64,000 bases of DNA from Nitrospira sp. (GTDB lineage: Bacteria > Nitrospirota > Nitrospiria > Nitrospirales > Nitrospiraceae): assembly GCA_020853775.1 (NCBI GenBank), contig JADYYH010000093.1, positions 211 through 64,210 of the forward strand, read 5' to 3'. Each line of letters opens with the position of its first letter. Positions within the stretch are counted from its first letter, which is position 1. The position numbers and the translations under genes were made by a program. Below, in pieces: positions 42,715 through 56,505 of this stretch. The notes under the pieces were generated by a model that made no database searches, had not been told where the DNA came from, and saw only the letters and a program-made list of their open reading frames with translations.

Positions 42715-43449
42715 ATGGCAAATCATTTTCTCAGCAGAATCGTAATGACGGTCCTGACGGCGGCGTGTGTGGGCGTGCCCGTTGCCGCGTCGGCGAATAC
42801 TGAGGTGGAAACGGCTGAATTGCTGATCAAATTGTTACAAGTCGGCCGCGGAGTACTGTCGGAGAACCAGGCGACGATCAATGACGCCAGCAAGGGCGAC
42901 AAGGGGATTACCGGGGACTACATCGCCAACCAGGTTATCGACCGGTTCCGCAAAGCAACGAAGATCGACTTGAGCCGTCCGGCCACTGTGCCGCAGGCGC
43001 CGCTGTTCCTCGCCATGGTCGAATCGGAAAAAGAAGTCATCGATGAGGCCCAGCCCGTGATCAACAAGCAGGGCGTCGGCTTTAAAGGGATTATCCCCGC
43101 CGTGTTTGCACGCAAATCTGGCGAGCGGTTCTACCGGAAAACCGGGATTCGCGTGAAGCTTACGAGCATCGATTATCGTTTTCCCGGCAACCGCCCGGAT
43201 GATTTCGAATCCGAAGTGTTGCGGATTTTTTCCGACTCGCGCCATCCCAAGGGACAGCCGTACAGCAAGGCCACCATGTTGGATGGAAGAGCGGTGTTGC
43301 GCATGATGGATCCGGAATATGCCGCGACGACATGCCTCAGTTGCCATGGGAATCCGAAAGGCGAGCGCGATGTCACGGGCGCCAAGAAGGAAGGCTGGCA
43401 TGAGGGCGACTTGGCCGGCGCCATCAGCATTGTCATTCCTATGAAGTAG
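42715..43449 (+). CDS. Exported DUF3365 (Tll0287-like) c-type heme protein
   Basis: Signal peptide (..AASA), FRFPGNRPDDFE-like segment, CLSCH heme motif, GWHEGDLAGAISI. Confidence 0.82.
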   Translation: MANHFLSRIVMTVLTAACVGVPVAASANTEVETAELLIKLLQVGRGVLSENQATINDASKGDKGITGDYIANQVIDRFRKATKIDLSRPATVPQAPLFLAMVESEKEVIDEAQPVINKQGVGFKGIIPAVFARKSGERFYRKTGIRVKLTSIDYRFPGNRPDDFESEVLRIFSDSRHPKGQPYSKATMLDGRAVLRMMDPEYAATTCLSCHGNPKGERDVTGAKKEGWHEGDLAGAISIVIPMK

Positions 43450-43515
43450 CACGACGGCGCATTCGACATGCGGCTGTCGCAAAATTCTGGATGGTTGTGA
43501 AGGGGGGATGGATTC

Positions 43516-43878
43516 ATGAGCAAAATTGTTGTGGTCGATGATTCGTACGCCGAACTGCAGTTGATCGAAGGATATCTCAAATCCGCCAACCACACGGTGG
43601 TGTCCTATCCCAACACCGATAAACTCGAAGATAAGTTGGCGCTGGATAAGCCGGATTTGATCGTGTTGGACGTGGTCATGCCCGGGCGCAATGGATTCCA
43701 AGCCTGCCGCGACCTGAAGGGTGATGACCGGTTCAAAGGCATTCCGATCGTGCTGTGCACCTCCAAGGGGCAGGAAAGCGACAAGTTCTGGGGGCAGCAA
43801 CAGGGGGCAAACGGCTACGTGGTCAAGCCGTTCAAGGCCGAAGATCTGGTCGCAGCCGTGAAACGGGCACTGAACTAA
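43516..43878 (+). CDS. Single-domain response regulator (PilH/CheY-like)
   Basis: VVDDS, LDVVMP (Asp), DKFWG, KPF. Confidence 0.93.
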   Translation: MSKIVVVDDSYAELQLIEGYLKSANHTVVSYPNTDKLEDKLALDKPDLIVLDVVMPGRNGFQACRDLKGDDRFKGIPIVLCTSKGQESDKFWGQQQGANGYVVKPFKAEDLVAAVKRALN

Positions 43879-43881
43879 CTT

Positions 43882-44427
43882 ATGAGCGACGTTCCCATCA
43901 TCCAGTCTCAACCGTCCGCTTCCTCTCCGGCCCAAGGATCCTCCGCTTCATCGAGGGCTTCCGCCGCACCGACCGAAGGCGCGCTGCGCATGTGCGTGTT
44001 GACATTGGGAGGAGAACTGTTCGCCATCGATCTCCGCCATGTCAGTGAAGTGTTCGAGGTGGAAGCCGTGACGGCCGTCCCCAGTATGCCCGGTTATCTG
44101 ACGGGAGTGACCAACCTTCGGGGAACGGTGATCACGCTGGTTGATTTGCGCGGGAGCCTCGGCTTGTCGATGAGCAACACGTCGCTGCCCTTCGCGGTCG
44201 TGATCCGTCACGGCGTCAGGCAGGTGGGAGTACTGGTCGATCACGTGCCGGAAATTCATACGGTGGCCCGCGAGCACCTGTTGCCTGCCATGCAGGCGGG
44301 ACCGGCTGGCGCGAGACCCTGTGTGTCGGCCGTGTTGCGTCTGGATCAACGCCTGGGAGGCGTCTTGGAAGTGCCGCAGGTCTTCGCGCAAGTGGACGGA
44401 GGAAGTGCGGCAGTATCGGTCGTGTAA
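43882..44427 (+). CDS. cheW: CheW adaptor
   Basis: FAIDLRHVSEV, GVTNLRGTVITLVDL, GVLVD. Confidence 0.9.
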   Translation: MSDVPIIQSQPSASSPAQGSSASSRASAAPTEGALRMCVLTLGGELFAIDLRHVSEVFEVEAVTAVPSMPGYLTGVTNLRGTVITLVDLRGSLGLSMSNTSLPFAVVIRHGVRQVGVLVDHVPEIHTVAREHLLPAMQAGPAGARPCVSAVLRLDQRLGGVLEVPQVFAQVDGGSAAVSVV

Positions 44428-44520
44428 GAAACAGAGCTATGACGGTTCGGGGCCGGCGCGAGCAGGGATTGTGCGACCGGCCTTGAACATTGAGCACGCA
44501 GTAACAAGGAGGAGCGCACC

Positions 44521-46395
44521 ATGATCGGGCAAGGCGTCACCAATCGATTCCAGGATATGAAGACACGATCGAAGCTGCTGCTCAGTTTCGGTCTGGTGAG
44601 TTTCATCATCATGATCATGGCCAGCGTCGGTGTGTTCACTCTGCGGCAGCTCAGCGCCCAATCGCAAACCGTGTACGTGGATTACACGGTCCCGTTGGCC
44701 GAATTCGCGCAGATGGGAACGGCGCTCACCAAGCATCACCAGATCCTGTTGGACGTCGCCTCTGCCACCAAGCAAAGCGACTTTGCCCAGGAAGTCACGA
44801 AGCTCCCGCCGTTGAAGGCCGAAATCGAGAAAGCGGTCAACAACTACAAGAGCACCAACTTGCGGGTGTCACGATCAGGCCGCGACGAAATGAAGGACCT
44901 CACCCTGTTCGAGCCGGCGCTCAAAAGATATTTTCATGAGGCCGATGGCGCCCTGAGTGCCATGGCAGACAGTTTCGATCGCAACACGCTGACCGCGGCC
45001 CAGGCCGAGCAAATGCGAGCGCTCGGTGTCTTGGCCTTGACGGTCAACTTGACGCCTGCATTCGAAAATGCGGTGAAGCGCCACAATGAGCAGGTCACGA
45101 GCATTGAAGCGGTGGCCAAGGATCTGAACGACGACGCCCAGTCTCTGTCCGCCAACGGTACATTTATTCTCGTGGCCGGTGGTCTGGTCGCTGTGGCCCT
45201 GGGATTGTTCGTCGGATATCTCCTGGCGACTTTCTTGTCACGGAACATTACGCACATTGCGAATGTCGCGACTCAGGCCGCCGGCGGCAACCTCCAAGCG
45301 CGCGCCAGGATTGAATCGCATGATGAGCTGGGGCAGATGGCCACGGCGTTCAACTCCATGCTCGATCGTATTTCGGTGCTCGTGTCGACGGAGGAAGAGC
45401 GCGACTTGATGCAGAAACGCCTGATGCAATTCCTCGTACTCGTGTCCGAAGTGGGTAAAGGAGACTTGACCCGCCGAGGCGAGGTGACCGCCGACATGTT
45501 CGGAAACCTTGCCGACGGTTTCAACCTCATGATCGCGCGATTCGGCCAGTTGTTGAAACAGGTGCGTGAAGCCGCCGACCGCGTGAACAAATCGGCTGGT
45601 ACGCTCCGTGATTCGGCCGGTCAGATGTCCGGAACGGCACGCACGCAGGCGGAAGAGTCGGTGCGAACGCTGGGCGCGGTCGAACAGCTGGCCGCCGGTA
45701 TGCGTCAGGTCGCCACGACGGCCGGCGCCTCGTCGGATTCCGCCAAGCAAGTGCTGTCAGCAACAGAACGCGGAAACGTGGCCGTGCAGGAAACGGTGCG
45801 CGATATGCAGAGTATTCGTTCCGCGGTGCAACGCATGTCCAAGCAGGTAAAGGGCCTCGGCGACCGTTCGCTCGAAATTTCTCAGATCGTATCGACCATT
45901 CGAGATATCGCCAACCAGACGAACCTCCTCGCGCTCAACGCCGCCATCGAGGCGGCGGGCGCCGGTGAGGCCGGTGCGCGATTCGCCGTCGTCGCCGACC
46001 AGGTGAGAAAGCTGGCGGAAAGTTCCACGCAAGCCACACGCGAAATTGCCGACCTCGTCAAAGTGATTCAGACAGAAACGCAGGATGCGGTGGTCGCGAT
46101 GGAACATGAAACACAGGCGGTGGAAGCCGGATCTGCTTCGGCTCTCCGGACCGGTGACGTGTTCGCCGAAATTTCAGACATCGCGAAACGGTCATCCGAA
46201 CTGGCCCAGAATATCGCCAGCGCGGCGTCAGACCAGACCTCCTCGACGGAAAAAGTCGGCCGCGCGATTAAGGAATTCACGGGAGGCGCAGTGGCGACGC
46301 AGAAACAAACCGACTCCACGCGACTCACGATCGAGGATATGGCCAAGCTGGCCGAAGGCCTCAACTCCTCAGTCGCTCAGTTCAAGCTGACGTAG
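44521..46395 (+). CDS. Methyl-accepting chemotaxis protein (PilJ-like)
   Basis: TM - four-helix periplasmic domain - TM - HAMP; [38 protein letters not shown]. Confidence 0.95.
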
Positions 46396-46408
46396 CAGCA
46401 TTCTAGAA

Positions 46409-46430
46409 GAGCGGTGCCCAGTCACCGCTC
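46409..46430 (+). other. Intergenic stem-loop between MCP and cheA
   Basis: GAGCGGTG-cccagt-CACCGCTC, 8-bp perfect stem, no U tract. Confidence 0.5.
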
Positions 46431-46447
46431 GGATATGACGTAGGGCT

Positions 46448-49400
46448 ATGAGCGCTGATTTTGATCGCGACCAGCTGCTGGACATTTTCGTGGCCGAAGC
46501 CGGCGACGACATGGAGCGGTTCTGGAAGGCACTCCATCCGGAAGGGAAGGTGCGTCCCGAACCGGGTGAGGTCGCCGAATTCCATGCTGTGGGCCATAAG
46601 TTAAAAGGCGCGGCACTGCTGTACGGTTTTCCTGGTCTCGGGCAACTCGGCGCGTTACTGGAAGAGACGCTGGAACGTGTTCAGGAGATGTCTCCGAGTC
46701 AGTGGCCGGTCGCCTTTGAGGTGATCCGGGATATCGTCGCATCCTTTCGTCAGCAGGTGGCCAGGATCGGCCGTGGCGAAGGTGAAGATGCCTCTCTCGT
46801 GGACGGGTTTGTGCAACGGTGCGCGCACTTCCTGCCGGCGGCCTCCGATGACGACTCAGCACAGTCCCTCACCATCTCGACCGAGCCGGCGGATGACTAT
46901 CTTTTGCCTGTGATGGACGAGGAGGTTCTGTCGTACTTTGCCCCCGAAGCCGAAGAGTATCTCAATACGATTCAGAGCCTTCTCCAGCGTTTAGAGATTG
47001 AGCTGTCCGACGCGGAGACGATCCACCAGCTGTATCGTGTCGCCCATACGCTCAAGGGGTCGGCCTATACGGTGGGATTCCAGGTCGTGGGTGATGTGGT
47101 ACTGCCGATTGAAATCTGCATGATCGCGGTTCGTGAGGGAACGGCGGTTATTTCCTCGCAATGGATTGCCACGATTCGCCATGCGGTGGACGTGATGCGT
47201 TCGTTGATGGCGCGAGACAGGCAGCAGCTGCCGCGGTTGCGGCAGGACGTGCCCTGTATTACGGCGATGCTGCGGGAGCTGGAGCAAGGCATGCCGCAAG
47301 TCGCACAGGCGGATGCGGTTTCCTCGCCAGGCAAACATGCGCCTGAGGAGAACGGTATCCCGCCTGCGGCCTTGCCTGTCGATGCTGCGGCGCAGTCCTT
47401 AGAGCCCAACCCCTCGGTCGAATTGTCGGAAGCCTATCTCATTCCGATGCTGGATGCCGAAGTCATCTCCTATTTCGCCCCCGAGGCCCAAGAGTATCTG
47501 GAGAGTCTCGAAACCGACTTGCTGCGAGTGGATAAGGATGCGGCTAACCCTGACATCATCCACCAACTGTTTCGCACGGCTCATACGTTAAAGGGATCAG
47601 CCTATACCGTCGGGTTCCAATCGATTGGGGACCTGACACACCACATCGAAGATTTCATGGGCGCGGTTCGCGAGGGCCGCCTGAGGTTTCTTCCCGGCCA
47701 TACGGATGTGCTTCTGCGGGCAATCGACGTCATTCGTGCCCTGATGCGGCGCGACCCCTCGATGCTCAGCCGGACTCGACAGCGGTTTGCCGTAGCGCTT
47801 CAGGAATTGAGGGGGTTGGGTGAAGCCGCAACGACAGGAGCCATCGAGCCTGCTGTGTCCTCGCAGACCGACACAGTCGTGCCCCTCGATGGGCATGACT
47901 CTGAGACGGCTGAGCCTGTTACGGCCGGCGAAGGAAAAGCCGGAGAAGAGCGGGAGGTGATCCGTGTCAGCCGCGATCGGCTTGAACGCCTGCTCAATCT
48001 GGTCGGCGAATTGGTGATCGATCGCGGACGTCTCGAACAGCGGTTGCGCACGCTGGATCAACTGGCGACTCAAGTGTTAGCCAATAAGAATCGCCTCACG
48101 GATGCCGTACGGACATTTGAAGACAAACACACCTTCTCCTTTCAGCCCTCTCCCACGACCCAGGGAGAATCCATGCCGCAGGCGTTCCCTGGTGTCAGCG
48201 ACTTCGGCAGCCTGGAATTCGATAAGTACGATGACTTCAATATTCTGGCCCGTCGCATCAGCGAGGTGACGGCGGACATCAACGAATCCATGTCGCAGTT
48301 GTCCGGATCGATCCACCGTGCTCAGGACGACATGGGCTCACTGCAACAGTTGACGCTCGGCATGCGCGATGAAATCGCCCGCGCCCGTATGGTGCCGATC
48401 GGTACCCCGTTTACCAGGTTCCGTCGTGCGGCCCGCGAAATGGCCAGGGCCACGGGGAAAGACGTGAATTTGGTGACTTCCGGTGAACATACAGAAATCG
48501 ACACCGGCGTCGTCGAGCGTTTGGTGGACCCGCTGGTGCATTTAGTCAGAAACGCCGTGTACCACGGCATCGAGCCGGCGGCCGTCCGCCGAGTTCAGGG
48601 TAAGCCGGCGGCGGGGACGATTTATCTGCACGCTGCGCATCGAGGGAACTCGGTGTTGATCGAGGTCGAAGACGACGGCGCGGGGCTCGACATCGCCAAG
48701 ATCAAGGCGAAGGCCATCAAGCTGGGGCTCGTCAGGCAGGATGTCGCTGAAACCCTTCCCGAAAGCGAAGTCATCAAGTTCATCTTCCTGCCAGGATTTT
48801 CCACCGCCGATGCCGTCGGCGACCAAGCGGGACGTGGCGTCGGCATGGATGTGGTGAAGCGCGTCATTGAGACGATGAACGGCCATATCGAGGTGGAATC
48901 GGTGCGCGGGCAGGGTACGAAGTTCACCATGCATTTGCCGCTCACCCTGTTGATCGCCACGGCATTGCTCGTGCGGGTCGGAAAGGAACGTTATGCGATT
49001 CCTCTTCCGAGTGTGCGCGAAGTGACTATGTCGACGGCGTCAACGTTGCAACAGATGGGCGATCGGCAGGTGGTCCAAATCGGGGACGAGGCTATCGAAG
49101 TCTACCCACTCGGCAGCCTCATTCGTCGCGAGGCCGGGACGACAGACGGCGTCTCTCCCGTGGTGATTGTGCGCACCTCGACCGGCGCGCTCGGCTGTGC
49201 GGTGGATGAGTTACTGGGCCGGCAGGAAATCGTTATCAAGTCGCTGGGCGGACTGAAGCCGTATGACCGCTCGGTATTCGGTGGCGCCACGATCGATCCG
49301 GAGGGACGTGTGGTGCTGGTGTTGGACGTCAGTCGCCTGACCACCCGTGAATATCATGAAACCATGTCCATCGCGCCGGCTCCGGTGGTGTCAGCGATTG

Positions 49401-49828
49401 AAGACGCGACAGGGCACAGCGATGCGCGACCGGATGTCCGCTCGCCCTTACCGCTGCTGTTGATCGACGATTCACTCAGCATCCGAAAGTTCGTGGGCCG
49501 TATGCTCGAAGCCGCCGGGTATACCGTCGAAACAGCGACGGACGGCGAAGAGGGCTGCCGCAAAGCGATGGCGCAAGCCTACCAGTTGATTATCACCGAT
49601 CTCGAAATGCCCAAGTTGAACGGCTATGAAGTCATTCAAGCCCTTCGCGCGAGGCCTCAGACTCAGGCGACGCCGATTCTTGTGATGACGACGCGGGCAG
49701 GGGAGAAGCATCGCCAGATGGCCGTCAGTGTCGGCGCATCGGGCTACATTGCCAAGCCGGTCGAAGAGCGGGCCTTGATTCAGGAAGTGCGCAAATGGAC
49801 CGGTGTCGAGGCACGGGCTGAAAAGTAA
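46448..49828 (+). CDS. cheA: Hybrid CheA/ChpA-like kinase: 3 Hpt, dimerisation, HATPase, CheW, REC
   Basis: HKLKG, HTLKG, HTLKG; HLVRNAVYHG, DDGAG, FLPGFST, GRGVGMDVV; C-terminal IDDS..TDLEMP..KP. Confidence 0.95.
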   Translation: MSADFDRDQLLDIFVAEAGDDMERFWKALHPEGKVRPEPGEVAEFHAVGHKLKGAALLYGFPGLGQLGALLEETLERVQEMSPSQWPVAFEVIRDIVASFRQQVARIGRGEGEDASLVDGFVQRCAHFLPAASDDDSAQSLTISTEPADDYLLPVMDEEVLSYFAPEAEEYLNTIQSLLQRLEIELSDAETIHQLYRVAHTLKGSAYTVGFQVVGDVVLPIEICMIAVREGTAVISSQWIATIRHAVDVMRSLMARDRQQLPRLRQDVPCITAMLRELEQGMPQVAQADAVSSPGKHAPEENGIPPAALPVDAAAQSLEPNPSVELSEAYLIPMLDAEVISYFAPEAQEYLESLETDLLRVDKDAANPDIIHQLFRTAHTLKGSAYTVGFQSIGDLTHHIEDFMGAVREGRLRFLPGHTDVLLRAIDVIRALMRRDPSMLSRTRQRFAVALQELRGLGEAATTGAIEPAVSSQTDTVVPLDGHDSETAEPVTAGEGKAGEEREVIRVSRDRLERLLNLVGELVIDRGRLEQRLRTLDQLATQVLANKNRLTDAVRTFEDKHTFSFQPSPTTQGESMPQAFPGVSDFGSLEFDKYDDFNILARRISEVTADINESMSQLSGSIHRAQDDMGSLQQLTLGMRDEIARARMVPIGTPFTRFRRAAREMARATGKDVNLVTSGEHTEIDTGVVERLVDPLVHLVRNAVYHGIEPAAVRRVQGKPAAGTIYLHAAHRGNSVLIEVEDDGAGLDIAKIKAKAIKLGLVRQDVAETLPESEVIKFIFLPGFSTADAVGDQAGRGVGMDVVKRVIETMNGHIEVESVRGQGTKFTMHLPLTLLIATALLVRVGKERYAIPLPSVREVTMSTASTLQQMGDRQVVQIGDEAIEVYPLGSLIRREAGTTDGVSPVVIVRTSTGALGCAVDELLGRQEIVIKSLGGLKPYDRSVFGGATIDPEGRVVLVLDVSRLTTREYHETMSIAPAPVVSAIEDATGHSDARPDVRSPLPLLLIDDSLSIRKFVGRMLEAAGYTVETATDGEEGCRKAMAQAYQLIITDLEMPKLNGYEVIQALRARPQTQATPILVMTTRAGEKHRQMAVSVGASGYIAKPVEERALIQEVRKWTGVEARAEK

Positions 49829-49875
49829 CAAGGTTTTGCCGACTCCTGCCGTTGCTGGCAGAATGAAGGACACAT

Positions 49876-50457
49876 ATGGGTCTTCGGGGACAACGGGCAG
49901 TCACTCTCTCAAGCGGGCAAGCGATCAGGTTTCTTGTCACGCTGATCGGTGGTTCCGCCGTTGCGTTTCCCGCGCAGTGGGTTCGCGGTATCGTAATGCC
50001 CGCCGCCACCGGACCTGATGGCCTCGTCACGTGGGCCGGCATGGATTACGAACGAACCGATCTCTCTGCTCGACTCAAGGTGATCTCCAAAGGTCCTTCC
50101 CCCGACACCAGGCTGATTCTCTATGGCAATGAAGAACGGTCACGATCGTTTGAGGTCGACAAGGTGCTCGGTTTGCTGGACGTCGAGCGGGCGCTGATTC
50201 ATCCGTTGCCTCCTCAGTTCCGAGGCAAGGAACGGGAGCGCTTGCTGGGAGTTGTTGTCGACTCTTCGTTTATCGCCCTCATCGCCAATCCTTTTTGGGT
50301 GCTTGAGCTCCCGCTCAGGTCGCATGCCTTGGAAATGTTTGCAATCCGGTTTGCGGAAGGGATGCCCGAAGAGAGCGCGTCACGGCTTCATCTACCGGTC
50401 GTGGCCATGAATGAGCCGGTGTTGATGTCCACGAGCCACGTGAGTCCATCATCGTAG
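49876..50457 (+). CDS. Divergent CheW-like protein
   Basis: RFLV..AFPAQWVRGIV..VDKVLGLLDV..HPLP pattern; operon context. Confidence 0.6.
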   Translation: MGLRGQRAVTLSSGQAIRFLVTLIGGSAVAFPAQWVRGIVMPAATGPDGLVTWAGMDYERTDLSARLKVISKGPSPDTRLILYGNEERSRSFEVDKVLGLLDVERALIHPLPPQFRGKERERLLGVVVDSSFIALIANPFWVLELPLRSHALEMFAIRFAEGMPEESASRLHLPVVAMNEPVLMSTSHVSPSS

Positions 50458-50463
50458 GTCATC

Positions 50464-50940
50464 ATGCTTCGTAGTCAGCTACACAGGCAATCACAGGGCA
50501 CGGGGGCTGGAGCGACCCACGCCCGACTTCAGAATATGGTCGTCTTTTCGGTTGCCGGGAAGTGGCTGGCCGCCAGAACTGAGGAGATCGGCGGGGTCTT
50601 GCCGTGGCCCGGCGCCACGCCGGTTCCCAGTGAGACGCCGCATGTCGCCTCGCTGGTCCGGCATGAGGACTCGTGTCTTCCGGTGTTCGATCTTGCGGCA
50701 AAATTCAACCGCACGGTGCGCGAAGAGGAGTCACTGTGTTTGATCGTCAAACATGTTGACGGCCCTCTTGCCATTTGCATCGATGCTCAGGTGCCCTCGC
50801 TGCATGTGGTGTCGCGTTCAGAAGTGCAGTATCAAAGCGGCCTGGATCCGGACATCGCCGGGTCCTGTGTCGCGGGTGACGAACAATTGCCACTCATCAA
50901 CCTGGCAACCTTAGGGGTCGCATCACCGCGTCCAGCCTGA
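50464..50940 (+). CDS. CheW-like protein (ChpC-like)
   Basis: VVFSVAGKWLAARTEEIGGV, LPVFDL, LPLINL. Confidence 0.7.
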   Translation: MLRSQLHRQSQGTGAGATHARLQNMVVFSVAGKWLAARTEEIGGVLPWPGATPVPSETPHVASLVRHEDSCLPVFDLAAKFNRTVREEESLCLIVKHVDGPLAICIDAQVPSLHVVSRSEVQYQSGLDPDIAGSCVAGDEQLPLINLATLGVASPRPA

Positions 50941-50968
50941 TGCATCCGACATCGCGTAGAGGAATGAT

Positions 50969-52444
50969 ATGCCAAAGATCTTAATTGCCGACGACAGCAT
51001 TGCGGTTCGCAAGGTGGCCGAACGACTTTTGACCGAGGCCGGAATGGGCGTCACGCTGGCGGCTAACGGTTCTGAAGCCCTGGCGATGTTGGCAAAAGAT
51101 CGTCCCGATCTGATCGTCTCCGACGTCATCATGCCCGACAAGAGCGGCTACGAAGTCTGTGCATTTGTTCGCGGGCATGCCAATCTCGCCGATCTTCCCG
51201 TGCTGCTCATCAGCGGCATTGTCAACGACGAAGTATCCAGGCAGGCGGAGTCCTGTAAGGCTGATGGTGTGCTGAAGAAACCGTTTCAGGGATCCTCCCT
51301 GAAGGATCGCGTGCTGGATTTGCTCACCAAGCGTCCGCACAAGCCTGCGCCGGTTACTGAAGCGGTTGCCGCTCCGATTGTGGAACCCGCAGTGATGGCA
51401 GAGGTCCAGCCAGCGCCAGTCCCATCGATGCAGGAAGATCTCATGCCAGCCCCCTTGGTACAGCGGGGGTGGCAACCATCGGTCGAACCGGTGGCGATTG
51501 TTCCGGAGCCGACCCCGGTTGTCCCGGTGCTCAATGAGGACGCTCATGTCCAGAACAGTCCCGTTGATCAGGTTGCCGAGCCAAGCCTGGTGATGCAGCC
51601 GGATGATCGTTACCAGGTGGTGCTGGCCGAGCGCGACGCCAGGATTGCCGAACTTGAAGCGCAGCTGGGATCTGAGCGCCGGCAGAGTCAGGAGGAGCGG
51701 GAACAGCACCAGCTCATCTTGTCGGAGGAACGTGAACAGATTGCGGCATGGTCCTCCAAAATGCAGGCGTGTGAGCATGATCTTGCAGAAACACGCGCTC
51801 ACCGGGATTCGATGACCCAACAGGTGGAGGATCTATCCAGGCAGGCGCACCGGCTGAGCGAGGTGGAGGCCGCCCTGGGTGAGGAGCGGCACCGTGCCCA
51901 GCAGCTTGCGCAGCAAGCCGCCGAAGGTGTTCGATTGGGCGCGCGTGTCGTGGAATTGGAAGCTCATCTCGAAGCCGAGCGTGAAGCGGCCAACCAATTG
52001 GTCAACCAGATTACCAGCCTCGAGCATGTCGAAGATCGCATGCGGGAGCTGGAACGGGTGCTGGCGAGCGAGCGGGAAGAGGCGATGGCTCTGCGAAACG
52101 AACGGGCGCATTTGGAAAAGAGTGCGGCGATGGTGCCCGTACTGGAAGAGGCAGGCGAGAAAGCTCGCGCTCAGGTGGCCGAACTCGAAGCGGCACTCAC
52201 CGCTGAACGTGAGGCGGCGGCCGCGCTGCTTGCGCAATATAAGGAGATGGAAACAAAGGCGGAGCGAGTGGAGGACTTGGAACAGGAGCTCAGTGCTGAG
52301 CGTGACCACTCCATGCAACTGACAAAACGGGTGGCGGATGCCGAGTCGATGGCTGAACAGTCGACGCGACGATTTGAAGATCTGGCGCGAAAGCTGGGAG
52401 AAATCGCCGGCCTTGCGTCCCAACTCGGAAACGCAAAACGCTAA
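50969..52444 (+). CDS. Response regulator: REC + Pro/Val/Glu linker + long coiled coil
   Basis: IADDS, SDVIMPDKSGYEVC, KPF; heptad-rich C-terminal half. Confidence 0.88.
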   Translation: MPKILIADDSIAVRKVAERLLTEAGMGVTLAANGSEALAMLAKDRPDLIVSDVIMPDKSGYEVCAFVRGHANLADLPVLLISGIVNDEVSRQAESCKADGVLKKPFQGSSLKDRVLDLLTKRPHKPAPVTEAVAAPIVEPAVMAEVQPAPVPSMQEDLMPAPLVQRGWQPSVEPVAIVPEPTPVVPVLNEDAHVQNSPVDQVAEPSLVMQPDDRYQVVLAERDARIAELEAQLGSERRQSQEEREQHQLILSEEREQIAAWSSKMQACEHDLAETRAHRDSMTQQVEDLSRQAHRLSEVEAALGEERHRAQQLAQQAAEGVRLGARVVELEAHLEAEREAANQLVNQITSLEHVEDRMRELERVLASEREEAMALRNERAHLEKSAAMVPVLEEAGEKARAQVAELEAALTAEREAAAALLAQYKEMETKAERVEDLEQELSAERDHSMQLTKRVADAESMAEQSTRRFEDLARKLGEIAGLASQLGNAKR

Positions 52445-52477
52445 GAGGCCGTCACTCGTCCCGTCGCGGGCGGGTGC

Positions 52478-53449
52478 ATGAGCCATAGGCAGGATGCTGC
52501 TGTGTCGACGGAACCAGAGCAAACCCAGGACGATTTCCAAAAAGAGCTCATCGAGCTGTTCGGGCAGGAAGCGCAGGAGTGGCTCGTGCAGATCCATGCG
52601 GCTCTGATTGAACTCGAGAGCCTCCCCGACTCGGACCGGCATACGCAACTGATCGACGCGGTGGTGCGGGGCATTACCAGTCTCGGAGGCTCCGCAGCCA
52701 CAGTGAGCCTGCCGGATGTCGAACGCGCCACGTTCGCACTCCTTCCGTTCATCGAAACGATCAAAGACCGAACAACGGCGACCGCACAGGACTTCAGCAC
52801 GGTCCGGGAACACTTTCGGATTGTGATCAGTTCAGTGAAAGTGGCCACGGGAATCACCCTCGACATCGATCCGTTGCCGGAGGTGGCGGTTGCGCCCGAA
52901 CCGGTGCTGGAGTTTTTCCCTCTCTTGAATGCCCTGCATCAGCTGCAGGATGAATTGGCGGCGCCCGGTGGCGTGTCCCGCAGCCTCATTCCGCAGGTGC
53001 TGCAACGTTTGGAGCATGAGGCGCGAATCGGAACCGGTCAGATCCAGGCCGCAAAGTACCAGGAACTATTGGTAACGATTCGTCACACGGATGCGCAATA
53101 TCTGGGCTCGCTCAGACAGGACTTGCCCGGCATTGCGTTGCACCTGAGCCGGCTTCGCGCCGGGGGCCTTGCAGTCCTGGCTTCCGACACCGGATTCGGC
53201 GCCTCAATCCAGCTCGTCGCAGGGCTTCAAGATATCGCCAAGCAGACCAATGCCACGCCGCTCGTCACGTTCCTGACCGGCCTGCAGAGTTTCCTCACGT
53301 TGCTCGTTCAACGCCGCATCGACATTGCCGCTCACCGGCTCCAATCGGTCGAGACGCGTATTCTGGCCGTGGCCAGCATGGTCGAAGAGTGGATTGCGGA
53401 CGGGCAAAAAGAGTTGGACATGATGAGCCGGCTCGCCCCATCGACCTAA
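52478..53449 (+). CDS. Helical protein with His-less Hpt-like domain
   Basis: ELIELFGQEAQEWL..ITSLGGSAATV (Thr at the His position) plus a second helical region. Confidence 0.75.
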   Translation: MSHRQDAAVSTEPEQTQDDFQKELIELFGQEAQEWLVQIHAALIELESLPDSDRHTQLIDAVVRGITSLGGSAATVSLPDVERATFALLPFIETIKDRTTATAQDFSTVREHFRIVISSVKVATGITLDIDPLPEVAVAPEPVLEFFPLLNALHQLQDELAAPGGVSRSLIPQVLQRLEHEARIGTGQIQAAKYQELLVTIRHTDAQYLGSLRQDLPGIALHLSRLRAGGLAVLASDTGFGASIQLVAGLQDIAKQTNATPLVTFLTGLQSFLTLLVQRRIDIAAHRLQSVETRILAVASMVEEWIADGQKELDMMSRLAPST

Positions 53450-53637
53450 GGGTGTCCAGTGCCATCGGCAAGCCGGTGCGGACCTGCCGCAGCCGCCGGT
53501 CGAATCGTGATCGTGCTTACCTTGTGCGCGATATCGCCATGGCTATGAATCGGTCCGAATAAGATCAGCGCGGTCGCGGGTCTCTCCGGTGGGTACGTTC
53601 ACCGATCCAAGGGACATGGGCGAAGGACAGAGACGGA

Positions 53638-55722
53638 ATGGAACAGAACCACTACCGGCAGGCCGAGGAGATACTGGCGCAGCTGGCGGCCTCCGTCCAG
53701 CGGCAGGACGCCGTAGACCTAGGCGAGCTCACGCAGCATGCTAATGGCATCGTGGAATCCGTACAGGGCAGCGATCAGTTGGTGGTTGAAGCGCTCTCCA
53801 GTCCTACGGGTCCTCCGCTGGTGACCAATCTCATCAATGTTGGAATCCTGGCCACGAAGGTTGGTATCGGCCTTGGATACTACGGCGTGGATTTACACCG
53901 TCTCGCCTTAGCCGGCTTGGTGCACGACATTGGAATTTTTGCCATCCCGCAACAGCTCCTGACAAAAACTGGGCGTCTGACCGCCGAAGAACGGACGCTG
54001 GTGGAGCAACATCCTCGTCTCGGTTTCGACGTTATCCGGCAGGCGGGGCCGGACTATGCGTGGTTGGCTGAAGTGGTGCTGCAAGCGCACGAGCGGGGGA
54101 AAGGCCAGGGTTATCCTCATCGCTTGAAAGGTCGGGAGATCAACGAGCTGGCGCAAATCATCGGCCTGGTGGACATCTTCGATGCGCTGGTCAGTCCGCG
54201 TCCCTATCGCCGACGCTTATTGCCGCATGAGGCTGTGCGCGAATTGCTCACGACGGAGCGCACCGCGTTTCCCCGGGAAATCATGAAGGCCTTGGTCGAA
54301 CAGTTATCGGTCTTCCCCCTCGGCACGAGGGTGAGGCTCAGCAGCGGAGAGGAAGGAGTGGTGGTACGCATCACGGCTCGCTATCCGTCGCGCCCGGTGT
54401 TGCGGATCACGGCCACAGAGAACGCTTCGACGTTGGAGCCCACGCGCATAGTCGATTTGAGTCAGTTGCCCCATGTGTCGGTGGTCGATGCCGTCGAGCC
54501 ACCGGCGTTGGAACGCGTCACATTCGAATCCGTTGAACCTGCACCCGCAGCCCCTGCCGCGCCGACAAACGTCTCGGACCAATTTGCAGCCCTGCTGGAG
54601 AGTCTGGATGCCATTGCCGGCGTGATTCAGGCGGCCGTAGACCAACCGGCTGCAGCACCGGGGCCTGTTCAAGCGTCGGAGGAAGCGGAGGCACCTGAGC
54701 CGATGATCCCTGTACGCCGGGAGATTTTAGGCCTGTTCGTGCTGGAAGCGCGGGAATGGCTCAATCAGATCCAAACAGCGTTAGAACGGTTAGACGCCAC
54801 CAGTGAGCAGGCGCGCCGCGCGCAATTGGCCTCGATTTTATGGCAGAGCGTCAACAACCTCGCCCGTTCCGCTGCCACGGTGGGATTGACGGCGGTGGAG
54901 ACAATGGCGACCAGGCTGTTTCCGCTCCTGCAGGCGGCGGCCAGGCATGAACGGGCCGTGGCCGCGCATCACGTGGCGTCGCTTCGGGAGGGATTGCTGG
55001 AGATCAGCAAAACGGTCCAGGAGCTTCGACCGGTGGAAGAGCATCCTTCGAAAGCGGACGAAACGATCCAGCGACCACCGCAGGCCGTTGAGCAACCGGA
55101 GCAGCGGGAGTCTCAGGAGCCGCAGCTGCCCGGCCAGACCACCGCTGAAATCGCCTCGCCCATCTCCATCGCTCCACACCCCATGCCTGCGTCCTCCATT
55201 CTCGAGGCCTTGCGGCAATTGCATGTGGCGCGCGGACGCTCGCTTGAACCGGTGCGGGATGTGTTGGAGACGATCATTCAACGTGCGGAACGCAAGGTGG
55301 CCGGGGGGGCTATGGTGGATGCACGGGCCATCGGACGTCTGTTGCAGGAGTTAGATGAGTTGGATGAGCGGTTTCTCGGCCATATGCAGGTTCGAGTACC
55401 ATCCGTCGTCGCGACGCTCGGCCGTATTGCACGGGCGAGCGAAGAACGCGTGTTGCCCCCGCAGGCGCTGGAGCCTATTTTTGAAGAGATCGATGTGCTC
55501 TTCGAGGCCTCTGAAAAAGTCTCCGCAGCGAATATCAGTGTCTTCCTCCAGGGCCTGCGAACCTTCCTCCGCGTGACCGCACAACATAAGCCGGCAGTCA
55601 TCCGTGAGCGGTTGGCTGCCTTGGAAGAGCGGTTGGCGACGCTTGTTCCGCTGGCCCAGCAATGGGTGGACGTCGGGCGAGTGGAACGGGCGGCCATTTT
55701 CGATATTCTGCCGATGGCCTAG
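53638..55722 (+). CDS. HD-GYP domain protein fused to a His-less Hpt-like module
   Basis: HDIG, HERGKGQGYP, DIFDA, RPYR; C-terminal LFVLEAREWL..VNNLARSAATVG. Confidence 0.85.
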   Translation: MEQNHYRQAEEILAQLAASVQRQDAVDLGELTQHANGIVESVQGSDQLVVEALSSPTGPPLVTNLINVGILATKVGIGLGYYGVDLHRLALAGLVHDIGIFAIPQQLLTKTGRLTAEERTLVEQHPRLGFDVIRQAGPDYAWLAEVVLQAHERGKGQGYPHRLKGREINELAQIIGLVDIFDALVSPRPYRRRLLPHEAVRELLTTERTAFPREIMKALVEQLSVFPLGTRVRLSSGEEGVVVRITARYPSRPVLRITATENASTLEPTRIVDLSQLPHVSVVDAVEPPALERVTFESVEPAPAAPAAPTNVSDQFAALLESLDAIAGVIQAAVDQPAAAPGPVQASEEAEAPEPMIPVRREILGLFVLEAREWLNQIQTALERLDATSEQARRAQLASILWQSVNNLARSAATVGLTAVETMATRLFPLLQAAARHERAVAAHHVASLREGLLEISKTVQELRPVEEHPSKADETIQRPPQAVEQPEQRESQEPQLPGQTTAEIASPISIAPHPMPASSILEALRQLHVARGRSLEPVRDVLETIIQRAERKVAGGAMVDARAIGRLLQELDELDERFLGHMQVRVPSVVATLGRIARASEERVLPPQALEPIFEEIDVLFEASEKVSAANISVFLQGLRTFLRVTAQHKPAVIRERLAALEERLATLVPLAQQWVDVGRVERAAIFDILPMA

Positions 55723-55980: not shown

Positions 55981-56505
55981 ATGCCAAAACTTGTCTCAGT
56001 CAAACAGCAGGAAGGGCACGACGCGCGCGCGACGGCCTATATCAAAGCCTACATGCTCTTTCCGGCCGGGATTCTCGGCCTGATCTCCATGCTCGGCGGA
56101 GTCGGCGGGTTGGGCTATCAACTCATCGCCACGGATACCTATTCGTGGACCACCTTTGTCGAAAGCTCCGGGTTGTTGCTGCTGGGGGGATTGCTGGGGT
56201 GGGTGCAGACCACCTACCATCGCTGGATCCTGGCCAACCGTCCTGAAGTTTTCGCCGAGCGTATGCGGCAGCCCGCGCTCAACAAAAGCGGCAAGCCGAA
56301 ACGCGAGAGCGGGAAGGCTCAGGAATCGGCCAGCGGATCCCCATGGGCTCCGGGTGCCTATATGGTCGGTCTGGCCTTGTTGCTGGCTGCATCGACCATG
56401 GCGGTGCTGTACGGGGCCGTCCATCCCATCCCGGCCTGCTTCCTGCCTTGGGCCGGTTTTTTCTGGGCCAAACTGTTCTTTTGGAAGACGCTGCTGAAAC
56501 CCTGA
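55981..56505 (+). CDS. Hypothetical membrane protein
   Basis: 174-aa ORF with about 4 hydrophobic segments; no family recognised. Confidence 0.65.
   Translation: MPKLVSVKQQEGHDARATAYIKAYMLFPAGILGLISMLGGVGGLGYQLIATDTYSWTTFVESSGLLLLGGLLGWVQTTYHRWILANRPEVFAERMRQPALNKSGKPKRESGKAQESASGSPWAPGAYMVGLALLLAASTMAVLYGAVHPIPACFLPWAGFFWAKLFFWKTLLKP

Follow-up and report, generated by a model that had tools for sequence, protein, structure and literature searches.

The closest known system to the one considered here is FimL of Pseudomonas aeruginosa, which operates with ChpA, PilG, FimV and CyaB in the Pil-Chp pathway. FimL is characterized by two domains that resemble histidine-containing phosphotransfer (Hpt) domains without the histidine. 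These bundles derive from the N-terminus of a multi-Hpt CheA, and FimL docks and recruits the receiver PilG, linking chemosensing to a nucleotide second messenger (PMC3019171, PMC10519157). The kinase ChpA also carries domains of this kind, the Xpt (Spt/Tpt) domains, which are Hpt folds with Thr or Ser for His in a pathway of the type IV pilus (Tfp) class; no phosphorylation of them is seen in vitro, a role as scaffolds has been suggested and their function is unexplained (PMC12632253, PMC10782961). Here we describe two adjacent genes of Nitrospira sp., located at 52478-55722 in a stretch of 64,000 nucleotides of contig JADYYH010000093.1 (assembly GCA_020853775.1), referred to below as the window. 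The first encodes a free pseudo-Hpt protein of 323 aa, P0001 (52478..53449, + strand), and the second a fusion of an HD-GYP domain with a pseudo-Hpt module, P0002 (53638..55722, + strand, 694 aa), each open reading frame (ORF) occupying exactly these coordinates. They are the last two genes of a ten-gene cluster transcribed from the same strand (42715-55722). We consider it about an even chance (a probability of roughly 0.5) that their products represent the output end of a Nitrospirales-specific chemosensory pathway, in which the two proteins dock a receiver in the manner of FimL and one of them tethers a probable sensor of cyclic di-GMP (c-di-GMP).

Like FimL, the Nitrospira scaffold is a separate protein with an Hpt bundle that is without the acceptor His, and it is tied to a multi-Hpt CheA with a C-terminal receiver. 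FimL differs in its length of about 560 aa, in having Gln at the acceptor sites where Thr or Asn is found here, and in the location of its gene, which is apart from the chp genes; it works through cyclic AMP, made by the cyclase CyaB, and has no fused nucleotide domain. The ChpA Xpt domains, in turn, are internal to the kinase, whereas the Nitrospira ones belong to separate proteins, are duplicated and, in one case, are fused to HD-GYP. Apparently, the Nitrospira module is an independently arisen analogue of FimL and not an orthologue, because its C-terminal domain is without relatives outside the Nitrospirales and NCBIfam gives no match for P0001. The two are set apart by the distribution of this domain, by protein lengths and by NCBIfam. 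The original prediction had proposed a system analogous to FimL but distinct from it: the analogy of a His-less Hpt stands, membership of the FimL family does not, and the C-terminal domain is confined to the Nitrospirales.

Three further systems are relevant to the fusion protein. The Wsp pathway (WspE to WspR, a REC-GGDEF protein) resembles the proposed one in acting on c-di-GMP without a motility output, but it does so by synthesis, through a phosphorylated receiver-cyclase, and possesses CheR and CheB; the Nitrospira pathway, by comparison, has no methylation enzymes and an HD-GYP domain without receiver, attached by way of a pseudo-Hpt. RpfG is an HD-GYP protein under the control of a two-component receiver, whereas P0002 has no receiver in cis and would make the contact in trans through its pseudo-Hpt. 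DvhD is a documented non-catalytic HD-GYP protein serving as a c-di-GMP receptor (PMC13090378); unlike in DvhD, the HD motif of P0002 is intact, and the substitution pattern G58, P60, N64, I100, A150 is specific to the P0002 clade. No description of an HD-GYP domain fused to an Hpt-like module was found, full-text searches on Nitrospira chemosensory HD-GYP proteins gave nothing relevant, and the main text of a survey of HD-GYP architectures does not mention Hpt (10.1101/2021.11.05.467447), in agreement with the earlier statement that this architecture was not known to have been described. The pair of pseudo-Hpt proteins looks like a lineage-specific device that would wire chemosensing to c-di-GMP signalling.

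The shared module of P0001 and P0002

The adjacent genes had been predicted to share a module of about 300 aa, and they do: residues 21-312 of P0001 align with residues 360-683 of P0002 at 22% identity (BLASTP, E 2e-17), in an alignment that holds every pair of matching segments originally quoted. The homology extends to both halves of the module when family profiles are compared (hhalign), with E 4.8e-23 for the N-terminal and E 7.3e-37 for the C-terminal halves. In the AlphaFold2 (AF2) model of P0001, with a mean predicted local distance difference test score (pLDDT) of 84.8, two helical domains (residues 17-124 and 143-317) are separated by a disordered linker. The module had been described as Hpt over its entire length, which is only partly right: the first 110 aa or so are demonstrably Hpt, and the remaining 180 aa or so are a separate domain with only a generic likeness to four-helix bundles. 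By sequence, the free protein and the C-terminal half of the fusion protein are scaffolds related as paralogues, each composed of an inactivated Hpt domain and a lineage-specific helical domain.

The N-domain of P0001 (52520..52852, + strand) is recognized only weakly by the Pfam model, as it scores 21.9 bits against Hpt (PF01627), below the cutoff of 24.6 bits, and P0002 has no Hpt match at all. Several homologues pass this cutoff, for example those of genomes G258 (33.4 bits) and G285 (27.8 bits). Against a local profile of 20 Hpt domains from the CheA of the operon and its orthologues, hhalign assigns a probability of 95.5% (E 1.5e-8) to the N-domain of the free family and of 95.7% (E 9.1e-9) to the corresponding N'-domain of the fused family (54703..55047, + strand). 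In addition, the free-family profile matches the P1 domain of Thermotoga maritima CheA (1tqg, E 0.004), with T67 placed on the phospho-His. The AF2 model of the P0001 N-domain (residues 17-124) is a helical bundle with pLDDT mostly of 89-97 per 10-residue block, and Foldseek retrieves the CheA P1 structures 3kyj, 1tqg and 1i5n at template modelling (TM) scores of 0.63-0.70, normalised to the target. The predicted fold of the N-domain is, in other words, the four-helix bundle of CheA P1 and Hpt.

The position of the acceptor is fixed by several alignments. Hpt2 and Hpt3 of the operon CheA ('AHTLKGSAYTVGF') put Thr67 of P0001 ('ITSLGGSAATVSL') at the phospho-His position, and Asn404 of P0002 ('VNNLARSAATVGL') shares the column of Thr67 both in the BLASTP and in the family alignment. 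Specifically, the BLASTP comparison with the operon CheA pairs 'RGITSLGGSAATVSL' of P0001 with 'RVAHTLKGSAYTVGF' and 'RTAHTLKGSAYTVGF' of Hpt2 and Hpt3. The claim that Thr occupies the phospho-His position in one protein and Asn in the other is borne out by these alignments and by that to 1tqg, and a duplicated module with a His-less Hpt is found, for the N-domain, by profile, fold and acceptor alignment alike. In CheA P1, as studied in Escherichia coli and T. maritima, phosphorylation of the histidine is assisted by Lys at +3, His at +19 and Glu at +22. All three helper positions are altered in P0001, where K+3 is G70, H+19 is F86 and E+22 is L89, and in P0002 their places are taken by A, T and F. 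In the operon CheA, all three Hpt domains retain H, K(+3) and E(+22). The residues T67, G70, F86 and L89 are invariant in 18 homologues of the free copy, down to 42% identity, and so is the surrounding stretch 'TSLGGSAAT...VER.TF.LLPF'. The acceptor position varies beyond this set: the orthologues of genomes G065 and G104 have Ala, and fused copies carry Thr in most genera but, in the genus of the window, N, G or S instead. Since the His and the helper residues are replaced and the neighbouring stretch is invariant, the acceptor chemistry is gone on a scaffold that is still constrained. The N-domains are classed here as pseudo-Hpt domains, from which the acceptor chemistry was removed and whose surrounding surface is strongly conserved.

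A variant of the free copy occurs in one Nitrospiraceae metagenome-assembled genome (L068:4001-5242; P0101, 420 aa), in which the Thr-bearing Hpt N-domain is duplicated in tandem.

The C-domain of P0001 (52895..53437, + strand; alignment and AF2) is helical, of about 180 aa, and carries the invariant motifs FLxGLxxF and W...E; its paralogue in P0002, the C'-domain, spans 55180..55719 (+ strand). No Pfam family matches the C-domain. Modelled alone by AF2 it reaches pLDDT 87.8 and a predicted TM score (pTM) of 0.77, and its best Foldseek matches are CheA P1 and four-helix bundles of P1 size (1tqg, 3kyi, 2lch, 3u3b), with TM scores of 0.66-0.83 normalised to the target but weak E-values (at least 0.07). 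When the C-domains (residues 140-320 of P0001 and 515-694 of P0002) were compared with Hpt, no signal emerged from hhalign against the local Hpt profile (probability 0.2%). The Pfam Hpt model gave a sub-threshold match in 1/28 aligned C-domains (E 0.0044) and another in a separately scanned orthologue from G258 (E 0.0012), no better than the matches of noise families such as Dynamitin and DUF7553. The C-domain is accordingly described as a lineage-specific helical domain with a predicted four-helix core of Hpt-like topology, homology with Hpt being unproven.

A profile search with the C-domain (HMMER, 1.84 billion representative proteins) returned only 164 matches, nearly all of them of about 310-360 aa, of about 700 aa, or fragments, and none of the length of FimL. 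In six more distant clusters that were looked up, the named members are Nitrospirales, and no relatives outside this order were found by the search. Two long matches of eukaryotic size, of which the one looked up is a pigeon protein, were rejected as multi-stretch repeat matches. The C-domain is a protein family without an existing model, whose predicted fold is confident.

The HD-GYP domain of P0002

The N-terminal half of P0002 contains the HD-GYP domain (53803..54312, + strand; Pfam HD_5 E 4.2e-27, HD E 2.3e-10), followed by a conserved extension, PLGTxVRL...G...G.V (54313..54537, + strand), with invariant P227-R233, G237 and V242 and no Pfam match. The HD and GYP motifs are present and phmmer relates the domain to the HD-GYP protein PmGH (4mcw) with E 7.7e-19, which places it in the HD-GYP family. 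In the alignment with 4mcw, the kept residues of PmGH are H221 and D222 (H96 and D97 of P0002), H250 (H125), H277 (H151), D305 (D179) and D308 (D182); the GYP motif corresponds to residues 158-160 and RPYR to 188-191. The c-di-GMP contacts K235, Y285, R314 and K317 of PmGH have their counterparts in K110, Y159, R188 and R191, and these conserved contacts are compatible with c-di-GMP binding.

The catalytic site is altered. Measured against the full set of metal ligands (PmGH E185, H189, H221, D222, H250, H276, H277 and D305) and catalytic residues (D183 and K225), three ligands are replaced (E185 by P60, H189 by N64 and H276 by A150), as are both D183 (G58) and K225 (I100). The original prediction had seen HD, GYP, DxxD and RPYR kept and two histidines changed in an atypical metal site: the motifs are indeed retained, N64 stands in place of the first metal His and A150 in place of the leading His of the HH pair, and the replacements of D183, E185 and K225 come in addition. 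Within the family these states are largely fixed. No variation occurs among 14 homologues at G58, N64, K110, H96, D97, H125, H151 and G158-Y159-P160; at least 90% have P60 and A150, with V instead of A150 in 1/14, and position 100 is I, L or M. The combination of N and A at the positions of H189 and H276 occurs in 1/9 HD-GYP paralogues of the genome, namely P0002.

The consequences of such changes can be gauged from PmGH, in which alanine substitution of H189, H276, K225 or D183 abolishes activity and that of E185 reduces it (PMC4159591). The structure of the receptor DvhD (9rbz) is among the best sequence matches of the P0002 HD-GYP domain in the PDB. On the sequence features listed above, c-di-GMP sensing or very slow turnover is judged more likely for P0002 than ordinary phosphodiesterase activity.

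Distribution, synteny and history of the pair

Close homologues of P0001 and P0002 are all annotated as Nitrospira or Nitrospiraceae, and Candidatus Nitrospira defluvii shares this locus, with 65% identity. Among 301 genomes drawn from the phylum, a P0001-type protein is encoded in nearly all those listed for the family and, within a second family of the order, in a single genome; it is absent from the Leptospirillum-sized genomes of a sister family. Other matches in the phylum cover only the generic Hpt part and lie in reading frames of 560-820 aa, which are probably ordinary CheA genes.

Twelve loci, from at least eight genera and two families, were compared for gene order. The order from REC1, a single-domain receiver, to the free pseudo-Hpt gene is common to them, and the gene of RECcc, a receiver with a coiled coil, stands directly upstream of the free pseudo-Hpt gene in 12/12. 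This holds even for the divergent operon of G104, which is without REC1, without the extra CheWs and without the CheA receiver. The genes were thus found linked to che genes in all these relatives, as the prediction of a chemosensory role would have it, and the two genomes without the module (G116 and G213) are also without any CheA. The HD-GYP part is less constant. A fused HD-GYP-module gene follows the pseudo-Hpt gene in G289, G252, G092, G195 and G210; G189 and G136 have an HD-GYP gene of 361-368 aa without module, as is common among lineage II Nitrospira; and no HD-GYP gene lies at the end of the operon in G285, G104, G258 and G065. A homology search with the HD-GYP-only protein of G189 gave only Nitrospira-type relatives in the best 120 matches.

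A maximum-likelihood tree of 45 modules places the free and the fused copies in two separate clades (100/99 support) whose topologies mirror each other, which indicates a single old duplication, both copies having been retained since. Genomes with the HD-GYP-only form possess only the free-type copy and nest among fusion-bearing genomes, which argues that the fused module was lost there secondarily. The single-copy versions of early-branching lineages fall beside the fused clade on long branches.

In one of the related loci (L026; G265:C1:1751500-1771000), the REC1, chemoreceptor, CheA, RECcc and HD-GYP genes show several frame interruptions, which could stem from pseudogenisation or from an error-prone assembly.

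A candidate mechanism and its alternatives

A possible mechanism is the following. The pseudo-Hpt bundle would retain the receiver-docking face of CheA P1 and would bind a receiver of the pathway without phosphotransfer, on the model of FimL with PilG. The likeliest partner would be RECcc, encoded directly upstream, with REC1 and the receiver of CheA as alternatives, and the C-domain may provide a second contact, to itself, to the paralogue or to a target. In P0002, the docking module would tether the HD-GYP domain and place c-di-GMP binding, or slow hydrolysis, at the chemosensory complex, where the phosphorylation state of the pathway and c-di-GMP could be read together. A receiver contact in trans would take the part that in RpfG-type proteins belongs to a receiver in cis. 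The free copy might compete for the same receiver, or pair with the fused copy via the shared C-domain. Receiver binding, c-di-GMP binding and the cellular output, which could be motility or aggregation, are what we infer for the pair.

A more specific version can be formulated, an output logic not described before, in which a catalytically silent HD-GYP receptor is docked by its His-less Hpt on a phosphorylatable receiver and the free paralogue competes or heterodimerises with it. The pair would then behave as a coincidence detector of phosphorylation and c-di-GMP and would, via RECcc, set a switch between motile and aggregated states. Taken with all its parts, this version is tentative and rather unlikely. 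The further suggestion of the original prediction, that the system controls exopolysaccharide (EPS) genes, is speculation only: these genes lie at least 28 kb away, and the link was rejected, with a TonB receptor and cobalamin salvage genes in between, on the upstream side of the operon, and with lpxD, fabF and lptF/lptG downstream on the other strand.

Several observations weigh against the role proposed here for the two proteins. Many lineage II Nitrospira have the HD-GYP protein without the fused module, and tethering is therefore dispensable there; some early-branching relatives have no HD-GYP gene at the end of the operon, so that c-di-GMP would not be core to the pathway. The Hpt-like nature of the C-domain comes from Foldseek matches whose E-values are weak, as said above. 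No pilus, flagellar or EPS genes adjoin the operon in the window, which gives no pointer to the output. As to the HD-GYP domain, Asn is able to coordinate metal, and invariant HD, H125, H151 and D179 form the pattern expected of an enzyme with a remodelled metal site. Finally, RpfG is an active phosphodiesterase although it is without the equivalents of E185 and H189 (PMC4159591), and two of the five substitutions are therefore not decisive.

The last of these points belong equally to the alternative that survives best, according to which the HD-GYP domain of P0002 functions as a phosphodiesterase whose metal site, for one or two metals, has been remodelled. Activity of the pathway would then bring about a local fall in c-di-GMP or cyclic GMP-AMP (cGAMP), the reverse of Wsp/WspR, and the pseudo-Hpt would do no more than localise or activate the enzyme. 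D182, GYP and RPYR are invariant together with the residues just named, and the Asn at the H189 position is likewise invariant and not drifting, which suggests function. Yet H276A, K225A and D183A each abolish the activity of PmGH (PMC4159591), and the corresponding residues are here A150, I100 and G58; moreover, a degenerate HD-GYP domain acting as a pure receptor is documented in DvhD (PMC13090378). An active enzyme is for these reasons rather unlikely.

According to a second alternative, the His-less P1 look-alikes dock on the kinase (P4) domain of CheA, in competition with the three genuine Hpt domains, and so tune autophosphorylation, the HD-GYP domain making this inhibition responsive to c-di-GMP. 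In the CheA of E. coli and T. maritima, a P1 domain can interact in trans with P4 even when isolated. Hpt2 and Hpt3 of the operon CheA are those to which the N-domains come closest, the helix bearing the acceptor position is almost invariant, and the genes always travel with this particular CheA. Nonetheless, the residues at +3, +19 and +22, which position P1 for catalysis, are all replaced, the tightest gene linkage is with the RECcc gene and not with cheA, and the sole characterised precedent, FimL, binds a receiver (PMC10519157). Docking on P4 is accordingly regarded as improbable. Most improbable is that Thr67 is a true phospho-acceptor, in a 'Tpt' domain of an unconventional relay feeding the HD-GYP protein: its invariance in 18 free-copy homologues, the ancestral Thr of the fused copy and the Thr and Ser versions of Hpt in ChpA (PMC12632253) speak for it, but the catalytic helper residues are gone, the ChpA Xpt domains are not phosphorylated in vitro (PMC10782961), and it was rejected as the principal explanation because the position varies, both in orthologues and in the fused paralogue.

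If FimL-like receiver docking by the two proteins is confirmed, they would represent a second, independent example, besides FimL, of a pseudo-Hpt used as a receiver-docking scaffold, and the first in which an HD-GYP domain was found joined to a scaffold of this kind. It would also offer a handle on how Hpt domains without His are used, a question not yet settled for ChpA. In soils, waters and wastewater plants, Nitrospira are the principal oxidisers of nitrite, and they include complete ammonia oxidisers; their growth in flocs and biofilms governs process performance, and their signalling is essentially unstudied. Of the chemosensory systems in the family, this operon is retained most widely, and in the genome considered here it stands alone.

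The operon and its genomic setting

The window corresponds to contig C93 of a 4.25-Mb Nitrospira genome in 121 contigs, rated 100% complete. The first gene of the cluster encodes a Tll0287-like (haem-c PAS-like) protein (42715..43449, + strand; Pfam PF11845 E 8.6e-25), found at the same place in 8/12 related loci. It is followed on the same strand by REC1, a CheY/PilG-like single-domain receiver (43516..43878; Pfam Response_reg E 1.2e-23) with 76-91% identity across genera, by a CheW (43882..44427; Pfam CheW E 9e-29) and by a chemoreceptor with the Pfam architecture 4HB_MCP - HAMP - MCPsignal (44521..46395). The CheA (46448..49828, + strand, 1126 aa; Pfam and sequence) is composed of three His-bearing Hpt stretches, a long dimerisation region, HATPase_c, a CheW domain and a C-terminal REC (residues 1004-1114). 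After it come a divergent CheW-like protein (49876..50457, + strand), sub-threshold for Pfam CheW at 20.8 bits and kept in synteny, a second CheW (50464..50940, + strand; Pfam CheW E 3.6e-13) and RECcc (50969..52444, + strand), in which a receiver (Pfam Response_reg, residues 4-115) is joined by a Pro/Ala-rich linker to a coiled coil of about 280 aa. The acceptor residues of the RECcc receiver are intact (DD8-9, D52, K103).

Overall, the operon comprises one chemoreceptor and three CheW-type couplers, without CheR or CheB, and its CheA combines multiple Hpt domains with a C-terminal REC and is without a P2 domain. By the domain content of its CheA it is assigned to the Chp/Tfp-like pathways, of the type Tfp or alternative cellular functions (ACF), an assignment that upholds the Chp-like system originally predicted. 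About 93% of multi-Hpt CheAs fall in the ACF or Tfp classes (PMC10782961). No pil genes lie around the operon within the window that would provide a genomic link to type IV pili; the genome carries the flagellar FliG and six PilB/PilT-type ATPases, the latter on other contigs.

The Pfam dimerisation match of CheA is limited to residues 503-556, with HATPase_c beginning at 694, which implies an extended dimerisation region (about 503-693); such regions are known from Tfp-class CheAs in Cyanobacteria and Chloroflexota (PMC10782961).

This CheA is the sole one of the genome, with a single H-kinase_dim match and a single tblastn match; tblastn also finds one further MCP signalling domain elsewhere, and CheR was not found in the genome. 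The operon-type CheA, of about 1100 aa, is the most widespread CheA across the family, and some genomes have one to three extra classical CheAs (640-760 aa). A classical flagellar chemotaxis system was considered and rejected as an identity for the operon: the ordinary CheAs of 640-760 aa are extra in other Nitrospiraceae, and the CheA described here forms a separate, weaker-scoring group. The presence of a single CheA and the absence of CheR despite FliG may indicate that a flagellar chemotaxis system was lost here, or that it falls within an assembly gap.

Some minor features of the locus complete the description. The start of P0001 is possibly the GTG at 52502, eight codons past the annotated ATG at 52478, as most homologues are of 315 aa and begin with 'MSTE'. 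The gap between the P0001 and P0002 genes (53450-53637, 189 nt) shows no promoter or terminator consensus; in several genera, a gene for an AAA_22 (ExeA-like) ATPase of 275-292 aa precedes the HD-GYP gene (L016:13594-14421, L017:14980-15858), where the window has the 189-nt gap. Directly downstream of the operon lies an ORF of 174 aa (55981-56505, + strand) without Pfam match, which may belong to the unit. Just beyond the operon end in five related loci are ORFs of 175-178 aa, which look similar to that of the window in size and in a 'MPKLI...' N-terminus and a hydrophobic stretch.

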